A DNA stretch of 64,000 nucleotides from a bacterium (GCA_029099845.1 JAQXOT010000006.1:230-64229); one strand, 5' to 3'. Numbered from the stretch's first letter, positions 6,505-59,197 are shown. Numbers and translations are program-made. Notes: a model not told the origin generated them from the sequence alone.

Positions 6505-7179
6505 CTATCTTGTCATTCTTTTTACATATTGCCTTACTGATTCATTCTCAATAGCTGTCTCTTTCATTACATCACTGATAGAATCATAATCAGAAAAAAC
6601 ATCATCAAGAATAGTTTTTTCTTTTTTCGTTAATTTTGCCATAGCAAACAACTCATTTTTAACATATGTATTTAAACTAAATGAATTATTGCTTCTAACA
6701 AATCGCATTAAACTAGGTACAGTTCTAATTCTATAACTTCCTGGATCAACTAGATATATTTTACCATTATAAATGGTATTATCAACTCCAAAGTCAGCAA
6801 CCTCAACATAATTATTCGTAAGAGTCATAATATCATTTTGAATAATATCCATTTCATCAATGAAATTAATCATTTTCATTCGAATAATTCCCGTAGTTGT
6901 TGCCTTTGTAATAAAAGGTGTTGTATATCCGATAAACTCACCACTATCAGCATCTCTAATCAATTTTCTAGGTAATAATAATCTATTTGTATCAATACCC
7001 ATTAATTTCTTAGCTTCTTCTTCTGATAATCTAAGTTTATCACAACTACCTGGTTTATAAATTTTTAAGGCCTCATCACGATATTGATAAACTTCAGCTT
7101 CATCGCCTTGATCAATATACATCCAAGCCAAATTATCATCACTAAACTCCAATAACTTATCATCAACTAATATTCGCAT
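6505..7179 (-). CDS. small protein-kinase-like fold protein (paralog A)
   Basis: 224 aa. GDEAEVYQY (Gly-loop-like), ALKIYKP (VAIK-like Lys), ADFGVDN (D-x4-N catalytic-loop-like) and LVDPGSY (DFG-like). Confidence 0.55.
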   Translation of the reverse strand: MRILVDDKLLEFSDDNLAWMYIDQGDEAEVYQYRDEALKIYKPGSCDKLRLSEEEAKKLMGIDTNRLLLPRKLIRDADSGEFIGYTTPFITKATTTGIIRMKMINFIDEMDIIQNDIMTLTNNYVEVADFGVDNTIYNGKIYLVDPGSYRIRTVPSLMRFVRSNNSFSLNTYVKNELFAMAKLTKKEKTILDDVFSDYDSISDVMKETAIENESVRQYVKRMTR

Positions 7180-7238
7180 ACTAACCCCCTAAATTAGTAA
7201 GCTATTATATCATAAAAAGCTTATAATGTAAAATAATT

Positions 7239-7922
7239 TTATAATCTCTTTATATATTGTTTTACCGGGTCCTTTAAAGTATCAGTATCAAGATTTAAAT
7301 CTAAATTAGCAAAATCAGTCCTTGTTGTTCCCAATAAAGAACCAATCATTTCTCTTTGAGCACCATTTAAACCTAAAGCTCTAAATAAATCATATTCGAT
7401 ATATTCATTCAAAGTAGAAACATTTCTATCTCTAACAAAATTTCTAAAGCCTAAAGAATAATTACTATTAACAGATTTATAACTTCCTGGATCAACCAAA
7501 TATATTCCATTATTAAAAATAGTATTATTTATATTAAAATCAGTAATTATAACTCCACTATCAGCTAATTTTACTGCCTCACTTCTAAGTAAATTAACTT
7601 CACTAACTAAATTTCCTATTTCCATATCAAAAATACTAGCTATTTTTGTCTTATAAATAAACCTCGTAGTATACCCAATAAATGCCCCAGTATCACAATC
7701 ATAAATAAGTTTTCTAGGCAGCAATATTCTTTCAGTATCAATTCTTGTTAACTCCAAAGCACTATCTTCCTCCAACCGAAGTTTTATACAATGCGGTCTA
7801 TAAATTTTTAATGCTTCATCTTTATATTTATATACTTTAGCTTCACATCCACGTCCTAAATACATTTTTGCTAAATTAATATAAGAAAGATTTAAAATCT
7901 CATCTCCAACCAAAATTCTCAT
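7239..7922 (-). CDS. small protein-kinase-like fold protein (paralog B)
   Basis: 227 aa, collinear with 6505..7179: MRILVGD, EALKIYRP, LLLPRKLI, FIGYTT, TDFNINN, IYLVDPGSY, QYIKR. Confidence 0.55.
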   Translation of the reverse strand: MRILVGDEILNLSYINLAKMYLGRGCEAKVYKYKDEALKIYRPHCIKLRLEEDSALELTRIDTERILLPRKLIYDCDTGAFIGYTTRFIYKTKIASIFDMEIGNLVSEVNLLRSEAVKLADSGVIITDFNINNTIFNNGIYLVDPGSYKSVNSNYSLGFRNFVRDRNVSTLNEYIEYDLFRALGLNGAQREMIGSLLGTTRTDFANLDLNLDTDTLKDPVKQYIKRL

Positions 7923-7945: not shown

Positions 7946-8545
7946 TTAACCTTTATAAAATATAGAAATAAATTTAGCAAATTCATATAAAATAATATCA
8001 CTTTTATTCATAGCAAAACTTTTTCCCATCGCCTTACCACCAATTGTAAGAGAAGCAACAATCGCAGCTACAGTCAAATTAACAAATAACAAATCAATAC
8101 CAAACTTACTGGCAATTCCAACTGCAATAGTTGTAGCGGCTGCACCTGAAATAATACCACAAATATCACCAATAACATCATTGCAAAAACTTGCTACTTT
8201 ATCAGCATTCTTTTTAAATTTAACAGCCACTTTTGCTCCCTTTACTTGCCTAGAGTTCATTGAATGAAATACCTTAGAATCAGCACTAGTAACCGCAACA
8301 CCAATAACATCAAATATAATACCAATAAAAATAAATAATAATGTAATAAGTACTCCCCAAAAGATTGACAAATTAGGAATTGTCATTTGTGATACAAATG
8401 ATAATGAAAAAGATATTAAAAATGCCATAATAACAATTTTAACTACCCATTTAACATCAACCTGCTCTTTTTTATTTTTTTCTTTCTTTTCTGTTTGCAC
8501 TAACAAATTTTCAAACTCTGAATTTTTATTCTTTTTAAATAACAT
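7946..8545 (-). CDS. oapA: four-TM membrane protein, OapA-like (OLE-associated protein A candidate)
   Basis: 199 aa with four predicted TM helices and a DVIGD (DxxxD) motif in TM3. It lies immediately downstream of, and co-oriented with, the large structured RNA. RBS AGGGTGAAGGA. Confidence 0.5.
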   Translation of the reverse strand: MLFKKNKNSEFENLLVQTEKKEKNKKEQVDVKWVVKIVIMAFLISFSLSFVSQMTIPNLSIFWGVLITLLFIFIGIIFDVIGVAVTSADSKVFHSMNSRQVKGAKVAVKFKKNADKVASFCNDVIGDICGIISGAAATTIAVGIASKFGIDLLFVNLTVAAIVASLTIGGKAMGKSFAMNKSDIILYEFAKFISIFYKG

Positions 8546-8570
8546 AAATCCTTCACCCTAATAATAATAT

Positions 8571-8596
8571 AAAAAAAATAGTATAAACATACTATT
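8571..8596 (-). terminator. rho-independent terminator-like hairpin between the large ncRNA and the oapA-like gene
   Basis: On the minus strand: AATAGTAT-gttt-ATACTATT followed by T8. Confidence 0.55.
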
Positions 8597-9190
8597 ATTT
8601 TAATAATTAATGGCTCTTAATATAGTAAACTCTGAACCTTAGGTCAAGTAGGATTTCCCTAGTTTCTGCACCTTCGTTACCAAAAATGCGGTTCCCCATT
8701 ATAGAAACTAATGTGATGTCACCACGCACACGACTTGATTGCCACTTAGTGTCCACTGCAATCCTATACTAATAGCACCCTAGGAGATTTCCTCCCCAAC
8801 ACTTTATTATTAATTCTTTTTTGCAAAAATAATTTCAAAAAGCAATACTTATTAAGGTGGCCAACTATAATAAGCAAGATCTTTTATCCCGATATCTTCA
8901 CTCAAGACAAGCTACACTACACATAACTTTCGCCACAATGTAGGTTCTTCCTACCACGTAACTAGACCATCAGCAATCGCGTATAGGCTATCTACGACCG
9001 GTAAGTCTCCACAAACAATGGGTCGTTTGTCGTATGCCATTACGAGCGCCCATTATTTTCATCTTCAGCATTCACCCCCCACTGGGCGTAAGAAGCAAAC
9101 ACCAAAGGTTTCACAGATATGCTCTTATAACGGTTGTTTAATCCCGTCTTCCTAATAAAGTAATTGACTAGAATAATGTGCCATCAACTA
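8597..9190 (-). ncRNA. ole: large structured non-coding RNA, proposed OLE (ornate, large, extremophilic) RNA
   Basis: About 594 nt with no ORF and visibly higher GC than the flanks. It is bounded by a consensus sigma-A promoter and a terminator hairpin. The length matches OLE (about 600 nt) and a 4-TM OapA-like gene follows it. Not verified with a covariance model. Confidence 0.6.
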
Positions 9191-9197
9191 CATTTAC

Positions 9198-9226
9198 ATT
9201 ATATCATATGCACCTCATTTTGTCAA
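9198..9226 (-). promoter_or_regulatory. consensus sigma-A promoter of the large ncRNA
   Basis: On the minus strand: TTGACA (9226-9221), a 17-nt spacer containing TGA, then TATAAT (9203-9198), giving an extended -10 of TGaTATAAT. Confidence 0.75.
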
Positions 9227-9302
9227 ATTTACACAAATTAATTATAAAAGAGGATTTATATCATCCTCTTAAATTTATTAAAAAAATTTCTTTCCTACTT
9301 AA

Positions 9303-9977
9303 CTAATTATTTTTAATCTTATTAACAAAGTAATTAATTTTACTAGCCCAAGTCGTTCCTTCACAATATTTAGGAGCAATTGTCTCAACTGTAGTTCTAC
9401 CTACTGAAAAGTAATTCTTTTGCAAATTATTAATAAAGCCCTCTATTCCTGCATCCAAAGTATCAAACTTTTTAAAACTGCCACCATTACATCCAGGAGA
9501 TCCTTTTTGCCCACCAACATTATTACAATAACGTGCTAAATTTGAACACTTAGTACCACATCCTGTTTCATGTAATATAATAGCAACTGCAATATAAGGA
9601 TCAACTCCTTTTTCCAAGCATAACTTAGCAATCAACTCACCCTTACCAGCAATATAATCATTTCCTAAATTACGATTAAGTTTTGCACTAAGTTCTTCAA
9701 ACGTTAACCCATCATAAACTTCAACTCTTGGTGGAATATAAATAGATACTGGTCGAGCTTCCATATCAACTGCCGTTAATGCTGAACTATCAATTCGATA
9801 ATTTAAATCCCCTTTAGTTAAAACACTGTTAGACATAGCCATACTTAAATTACTACTATCTACACCATAACTTTTTATCTTTGCTGATGAATCATTATAT
9901 GTAAGCATAGCACCAATACTAACAAGGCTAACAGCTAAAACCAATAAAAATAATCCTATAATCTTAACTTTTCTCAA
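9303..9977 (-). CDS. membrane-anchored peptidoglycan hydrolase, glucosaminidase (mannosyl-glycoprotein endo-beta-N-acetylglucosaminidase) domain
   Basis: N-terminal TM anchor. GVDPYIAVAIILHETGCGT...NNVGGQKG is characteristic of the glucosaminidase family. Confidence 0.7.
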   Translation of the reverse strand: MRKVKIIGLFLLVLAVSLVSIGAMLTYNDSSAKIKSYGVDSSNLSMAMSNSVLTKGDLNYRIDSSALTAVDMEARPVSIYIPPRVEVYDGLTFEELSAKLNRNLGNDYIAGKGELIAKLCLEKGVDPYIAVAIILHETGCGTKCSNLARYCNNVGGQKGSPGCNGGSFKKFDTLDAGIEGFINNLQKNYFSVGRTTVETIAPKYCEGTTWASKINYFVNKIKNN

Positions 9978-59041: not shown

Positions 59042-59197
59042 ACTACCCATCCCCATTAGTGCCCATATTATACTACAAAATATCAAAAATGTCAATTTAC
59101 ACCAGTCAAAGATAATATAAAAGTTATGAAACAAATAATCAAAGAAGTTAAATTATTAAACTTGATTTTTTTCTAATTAACAAAATTTATATAATAA

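Follow-up and report, generated by a model that had tools for sequence, protein, structure and literature searches.

Genomic locus and general features

The minus strand of a 64,000-nt stretch of DNA (GCA_029099845.1 JAQXOT010000006.1:230-64229; referred to as the window) carries a locus which represents, with near certainty, a gene for OLE RNA (ole) with oapA behind it, in the genome of an uncultured gut member of the Bacilli. A glucosaminidase-family gene lies upstream of ole, and two paralogous genes, termed c3 here, follow downstream of oapA (Table 1). A preliminary description had proposed an OLE RNA-OapA ribonucleoprotein at this site, and all sequence features listed there were recovered, with the minus strand as the coding one. 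The host metagenome-assembled genome (MAG) comprises 1.14 Mb in 28 contigs, is 91 % complete and has a GC content of 28.8 %. The nearest relatives of its OapA stem from gut MAGs labelled "uncultured Bacilli/Mollicutes", and the best DNA matches to the locus are pig-gut metagenomes. OLE is single-copy according to an Rfam scan of the whole genome. Within the genus, 13 of 21 genomes carry it, as do 24 out of the 35 genomes sampled in the family; the 266 further genomes sampled across the class have none.

Table 1. Features of the ole-oapA locus and its flanks, in the direction of transcription (positions count from the first nucleotide of the window)
Feature	Position	Strand	Remarks
Glucosaminidase-family gene	9977..9303	-	Pfam PF01832, 35.6 bits
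Terminator-like hairpin of the glucosaminidase-family gene	9248..9270	-	terminator scan
Sigma-70-type ole promoter	9198..9226	-	TTGACA 9226..9221, 17-nt spacer ending in TGA (TG at 9206..9205), TATAAT 9203..9198
OLE RNA gene (Rfam RF01071)	8594..9200	-	607 nt, full-length architecture, P11 missing, P7 with clade-specific extension
P13 hairpin	8711..8731	-	GUGA (GNRA) tetraloop and single-nucleotide bulge; alignment to Rfam model
Weak intrinsic-terminator-like element	8571..8596	-	8-bp AT-rich hairpin 8596..8577 plus U8 8578..8571
Shine-Dalgarno-like AGGGUGAAGG of oapA	8550..8559	-	read from sequence
oapA	7946..8545	-	199 aa, predicted four-helix membrane protein; ATG at 8545, 25 nt past U8
First c3 paralog	7239..7922	-	225 aa, 23 nt past oapA; predicted protein-kinase-like fold
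Second c3 paralog	6505..7179	-	225 aa, 45 % identical to first

Identity and fold of the OLE RNA

The RNA gene matches the Rfam model RF01071 end to end (model positions 1-616, not truncated), scoring 360.3 bits (E 3e-102), with the gathering score set at 50. Nothing besides OLE and one tRNA was found when the whole window was scanned with Rfam, ROOL and GOLLD being among the families without a match, so that OLE is the sole large RNA assigned and the proposal withstood the comparison with the covariance model. No open reading frame (ORF) of at least 60 aa is present from 8546 to 9302, and the GC content amounts to 39 % across the RNA and 43 % at its peak, as compared to 28.8 % in the genome; the description of the segment as ORF-free and GC-enriched thus holds.

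Projection of the model structure onto the sequence yielded 141 canonical pairs out of 159 consensus pairs, 14 non-canonical ones and four deleted ones, the latter corresponding to the small P11 hairpin. Overall, 62 distinct OLE loci were gathered from the same bacterial family and by OapA-based searches, 60 of which were aligned. In this alignment 93 % of cells are paired, as opposed to 38-47 % with the partners slid, and changes on both sides were observed for 108 of the 141 pairs; none of the shuffles reached the observed values. The helices P7, P8, P13 and P14 all covary, from which it follows that the RNA is a maintained, essentially full-length OLE and not the variant 2 devoid of P7 and P8.

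For P13 (helix 17 of the alignment), 95.9 % pairing and covariation of seven out of eight pairs were determined. A GNRA hairpin with a bulge, i.e. P13, serves as the docking site of OapB in Halalkalibacterium (formerly Bacillus) halodurans (PMC7936274). This hairpin is retained and covarying despite the lack of a detectable OapB gene in the host genome or in 41 relatives. The P7 extension (window about 8960-9000, OLE about 205-245, alignment columns 205-275) harbours words conserved in the bacterial family, GCCUAUACG ... CUGAUGG, which are found neither in the Rfam consensus nor in the canonical OLE of a metagenome contig (L075); some family members possess a short P7 instead.

The OapA protein

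Directly behind OLE and on the same strand, oapA is located in 36 of 36 related loci. The previously noted ORF of 199 codons with four hydrophobic segments and a DVIGD motif was found again: hydropathy analysis places the segments at residues ~33-53, 59-85, 120-142 and 148-170, and DVIGD occupies residues 123-127 (codons 8179..8165), in agreement with DxxxD being the conserved motif of OapA (PMC11332333). A search of 1.84 billion representative sequences retrieved 1121 clusters, almost all of them 170-270 aa in length. All 82 aligned representatives (31-53 % identity) and all of 22 OLE-adjacent proteins share D123, G126 and D127. A distant representative (36 % identity) is encoded on the above-mentioned contig L075 between a 489-bit OLE and dxs, i.e. 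in the canonical isoprenoid context; direct BLASTP comparison with this protein gave 35 % identity over 182 ungapped residues (E 3e-44), and an alignment along the full protein length to a bona fide ole-oapA-dxs locus was thereby achieved. Judged from these sequence comparisons, the 199-aa protein is OapA. Its putative ribosome-binding site has counterparts in the related loci, where purine-rich GG motifs occupy the matching place.

The transmembrane (TM) core of OapA resembles the CNNM domain of the Mg2+ transporters MpfA, CorB and CorC. The Pfam profile PF01595 matches with 24.1 bits, i.e. below its cut-off of 28.4, and the best sequence match in the PDB is CorB (7M1U, E 0.08). An AlphaFold (AF2) model is all-helical (pLDDT 80), and its comparison to the PDB by Foldseek recovered only MtCorB (7M1T) and the TM domain of CorC (7CFF), with a probability of at least 0.96. 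The relationship of OapA to CNNM proteins published in PMC11332333 is thus reproduced at the level of profile and predicted structure. In contrast to CNNM proteins, OapA comprises 199 aa, is devoid of CBS and CorC domains, has four predicted TM helices instead of three and carries the DxxxD motif, which is absent from CNNM (PMC11332333). A solved OapA structure was also looked for in the PDB; the sequence search returned none, CorB being the only match.

An OapA homologue with 57 % identity (L041:3300-4534) is preceded by a 600-nt AT-rich region without an Rfam or nhmmer match to OLE; this oapA looks to have lost, or to have been separated from, its ole.

Promoter and expression of OLE RNA

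The ole promoter scored 12/12 plus the TG extension in the promoter scan, in line with the TTGACA-N17-TATAAT with TG extension that had been pointed out before, and the transcription start of OLE is predicted near 9191. The exact pattern TTGACA-N17-TATAAT occurs twice in the 64-kb window, compared to 0.10 occurrences expected from shuffles; the only other perfect copy resides at 59067-59095 on the minus strand. Upstream of OLE, TTGACA-N17-(TG)TATAAT is present in all of the approximately 35 related loci for which upstream sequence is available. Since the glucosaminidase-family gene is followed by a terminator-like hairpin of its own, ole begins a fresh transcription unit, isolated from upstream transcription. 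A further site inside OLE, TTGACC-17-TATATT (8647..8619), was considered as promoter of oapA and rejected, TTGACC being an invariant motif of the OLE RNA and the site lying upstream of the hairpin between the two genes.

Assembled contigs of six RNA-type sequencing runs (gut and pig-gut metatranscriptomes as well as wastewater RNA) match OLE without any mismatch, examples being 8625-8947, 8739-8947, 8718-8882, 8727-8916 and 9145-9187. All of these contigs lie within 8625..9191, none of them extending past the predicted start at 9191 or across 8546-8624, and the depth is 0 on oapA and every flanking gene. Contaminating DNA would give the same coverage on the flanks; the pattern therefore argues for OLE RNA being expressed and far more abundant than the mRNAs of its neighbours, the contigs representing supporting evidence and not a measurement.

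The hairpin between ole and oapA

The stem-loop reads AAUAGUAU-GUUU-AUACUAUU, with the first two U's of the U8 run closing the stem. One out of its eight pairs is G-C, the predicted ΔG is -4.7 kcal/mol, and it went uncalled in the consensus terminator scan; among the hairpin plus T-run candidates downstream of ORFs of this genome (median -6.6) it ranges on the weak side. A strong internal terminator had been assumed at this place: position and composition, i.e. a hairpin plus U8 at 25 nt before the oapA start codon, proved correct, its strength did not.

A hairpin followed by T6-9 is found at the same place in about 36 of the 62 loci. The stems belong to at least seven unrelated types (AAUAGUAU/AUACUAUU in the genus, AAAGUAG/CUACUUU, AAGGUCC, AGACC, AAGGGAU, GAGAG and CGUC), with ΔG ranging from -3 to -9 across loci. 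Conservation of hairpin and U-run with differing stem sequences is a pattern typical of terminators, and the consistent weakness of the stems suggests that incomplete and not full termination is selected for.

Within the literature found to mention OLE RNA and oapA, no terminator between the two genes is described. In H. halodurans, OLE RNA has its own active promoter, runs as one band, is highly stable and shows a much stronger induction than the oap mRNA, which rises only modestly (PMC3413148). Hence, of the separation of ole and oapA previously regarded as unusual, the hairpin itself is real and conserved, whereas a separate OLE promoter and a loosely coupled oapA mRNA were already known (PMC3413148).

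Accessory partners

OapC (YbxF, L7Ae family) was searched for with PF01248, which gave no match at E <= 1 in the host genome and a positive result for the B. subtilis control. OapB (YbzG, KOW/SBB) was searched for with a real OapB sequence taken from the PDB 7K9B alignment; the best E values in the genome were 1.6 with tblastn and 2.2 with phmmer, the latter for L24. A KOW hidden Markov model retrieved L24 and NusG only, and a regular expression for an OapB motif had no match. The Ribosomal_L14e profile was also tried for OapB and discarded as uninformative, the B. subtilis control being negative. The search for oapB and oapC that had been suggested earlier has thus yielded neither gene, in agreement with the published observation that clades with reduced genomes largely lack OapB and OapC (Fernando & Breaker 2024, PMC11332333). 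The same study reported that MpfA anticorrelates with OLE.

Neither the host genome nor most of the family encodes an MpfA-type CNNM protein, whereas nearly all other sampled members of the class carry one; the absence from the host genome fits the published anticorrelation. With OapB, OapC and MpfA all lacking, the particle in this 1.14-Mb genome seems to be a reduced version. Among the OLE-negative genomes of the genus (G001-G024 set of genomes from the same genus and family), most are likewise devoid of an MpfA-type CNNM transporter. Both of the supposedly alternative systems thus seem to be missing from most OLE-negative members of the genus.

Proposed transcription model and alternative explanations

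The observations as a whole are best explained by a functional ole-oapA unit, probably with a leaky stop and a reduced particle, an interpretation that we hold with high confidence. The consensus housekeeping-type promoter would start an OLE RNA of ~620 nt, which would fold into the conserved ornate structure. Most transcripts would end at the weak hairpin with its U8 run, and a minority would read through to give an mRNA for oapA, the two kinase-fold paralogs and the ABC-F ATPase, such that the leaky stop would produce a large excess of RNA over the oapA message. By analogy to H. halodurans, a dimer of OapA (CNNM-like, with four helices and DxxxD) would bind the OLE RNA and anchor it at the membrane, and the resulting OLE-OapA particle would help against stress related to Mg2+, cold, alcohols or poor carbon sources. 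As to the hairpin itself, we lean towards its acting as a leaky terminator with read-through.

Several points weigh against this interpretation. The hairpin is weak, with its single G-C pair and -4.7 kcal/mol, and failed the usual terminator criteria; shuffled versions fold just as well as the entire region (z = +0.6). No hairpin is present in 22-26 of the 62 family loci, where the ribosome-binding site of oapA is often preceded by no more than a short U-run; with more than 20 loci lacking it, the system can do without the hairpin. The expression data are assembled contigs and not reads, provide no 3' end, size or ratio, and a depth of 0 is no proof of absence. With respect to the missing partners, the MAG is 91 % complete, and the search for OapB among the 41 relatives, none of which yielded a match, was run without positive control.

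Alternatively, ole and oapA might be fully co-transcribed, with the hairpin protecting or processing the 3' end, OLE being cut from a precursor and its excess resulting from stability. Apart from the weakness of the hairpin and its complete absence from several family loci, this would agree with the OLE RNA of H. halodurans, which is exceptionally stable and partly processed from longer transcripts (PMC3413148, PMC12265935). A U-run of 6-9 directly after differing stems in about 36 loci is, however, a hallmark of intrinsic termination and not of cleavage by a nuclease, and AT-rich hairpins are the norm among the terminator candidates of this 29 %-GC genome; we consider full co-transcription unlikely.

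Two separate units, with efficient termination of ole at the hairpin and transcription of oapA from its own -35-less (extended -10) promoter just past the U-run, would be suggested by the word TGnTAnAAT, which stands a few bases past the U-run and with invariable spacing to the 3' end of OLE in about 11 related loci. The window, in contrast, has UAUAUUAUUAUU only (5/6 to a -10 element, no TG), so near to the ribosome-binding site that the transcript leader would be almost nil, and AT-rich spacers often contain words resembling a -10 element by chance (22 promoter-like sites versus 19 expected). Such a promoter is accordingly rather improbable for the present locus. TGnTAnAAT following the U-run was noted in the spacers of L003, L012, L017, L021, L027, L030, L035, L052, L059, L068, L071 and L074, and suggests an own promoter of oapA in those species.

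A decaying OLE relic in a shrinking genome or another large RNA family mis-assigned as OLE (ROOL, GOLLD, raiA etc.), to which the strongly reduced genome, the loss of P11, the score of 360 bits compared to 489 bits for the canonical OLE of L075 and the eight of 21 genus genomes without OLE might point, is extremely improbable, given that OLE is the sole large-RNA family above threshold, nearly every helix is kept by compensatory changes across 60 species, the RNA is seen in metatranscriptomes, and oapA is intact with invariant motifs.

Comparison with known OLE systems

The OLE ribonucleoprotein of H. halodurans, with ole-oapA and unlinked oapB (ybzG) and oapC (ybxF), belongs to the same RNA family and shares nearly all helices including the P13 GNRA hairpin. 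Likewise shared are an own strong promoter just upstream of the RNA, an oapA gene immediately downstream coding for four TM helices and DxxxD, and an OLE RNA far more visible than the oapA mRNA. Different from H. halodurans, OapB and OapC are not detectable here, P11 is missing, and P7 is extended by the clade-specific motif. Moreover, the locus stands outside of an isoprenoid or DNA-repair operon, with a terminator upstream, the weak hairpin plus U8 before oapA, and the glucosaminidase-family gene, two kinase-fold orphans and an ABC-F ATPase as neighbours.

Further counterparts are the OLE RNAs called variant 1 or variant 2 of the gut clades TANB77 and RF39 (PMC11332333), which likewise come from uncultured gut bacteria with ~1-Mb genomes devoid of OapB and OapC. 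By bit score, the OLE of the window falls into the variant 1 bin of that study (310-390 bits, obtained there with the authors' own model). It differs from variant 2, described for RF39 as lacking P7 and P8 (PMC11332333), in that both helices are present and covarying (helices 5 and 6), and from many variant 1 RNAs in that P9 and the hairpin of the OapB site are kept. Its architecture is approximately full-length (607 nt).

Overall, the locus is an ordinary addition to the well-studied OLE/OapA family, in a clade already known to carry OLE. Its local features, i.e. the self-contained unit, the consensus promoter, the weak hairpin plus U-run, the lack of OapB, OapC and MpfA, the P7 extension and the kinase-fold neighbours, fall short of a new kind of system. 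The interest of the locus lies in documenting a clean and self-contained ole-oapA unit within a genome of 1.1 Mb devoid of OapB, OapC and the anticorrelated MpfA. Natural minimal systems of this type help to define the indispensable parts of the particle, and the conserved weak hairpin plus U-run suggests a simple means to achieve a high RNA-to-protein ratio.

Neighbouring genes and paralogs with a predicted kinase-like fold

The gene order in the family is glucosaminidase-family gene, OLE, oapA, optionally one or more c3 genes, ABC-F ATPase, PedC-like gene and bPH_3 gene. The flanks had been described as non-canonical: the glucosaminidase, the kinase-fold paralogs and the ABC-F gene are indeed present and conserved in the family, but cell-wall and translation genes already figure among the listed neighbours of ole (PMC12265935).

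The c3 proteins have no Pfam or NCBIfam match, and no Pfam kinase family was hit at E <= 5. A profile search assembled a family of 103 clusters, all from MAGs of gut Bacilli. The AlphaFold model (pLDDT 85.6) retrieved many protein kinases from the PDB by Foldseek with a probability of 1.0 and E ~1e-6, at a TM-score of ~0.5 and an identity of 12-13 %. In the alignment, no variation occurs at N133 and D144 and little at K39 (conserved to at least 90 %), while an Asp of the HRD type occupies no fixed column. The designation of the paralogs as kinase-like is consequently supported at the level of the predicted fold.

Genes of the c3 family stand behind oapA in 14 of 36 loci. Strong matches among the 41 relatives are confined to three OLE-positive genomes, always beside oapA; a weak match (24 % identity) was obtained in one OLE-negative genome of another genus, and within the genus c3 is restricted to OLE-positive genomes. 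Seven database members were checked: five are linked to OLE (L068, L070, L071, L073 and L074), and two are found elsewhere (L069, between ezrA and scpA, and L072). The loci all derive from one bacterial family, such that inherited synteny accounts for the linkage no less well than a functional link would.

The kinase-fold neighbour is a candidate for a functional link to ole-oapA. As a speculative and rather doubtful proposition, gut Bacilli with ~1-Mb genomes may run a minimal particle of OLE RNA and OapA alone, with P13 under purifying selection and the orphan kinase-fold protein as lineage-specific partner or regulator. If so, this protein might phosphorylate OapA or sense a stress signal. 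Finally, the 59-nt gap between the c3 paralogs contains a promoter-like TTTACA-17-TATAAT with TG (11/12; 7232..7204, minus strand), at which transcription of the second paralog and of the ABC-F gene may start independently.

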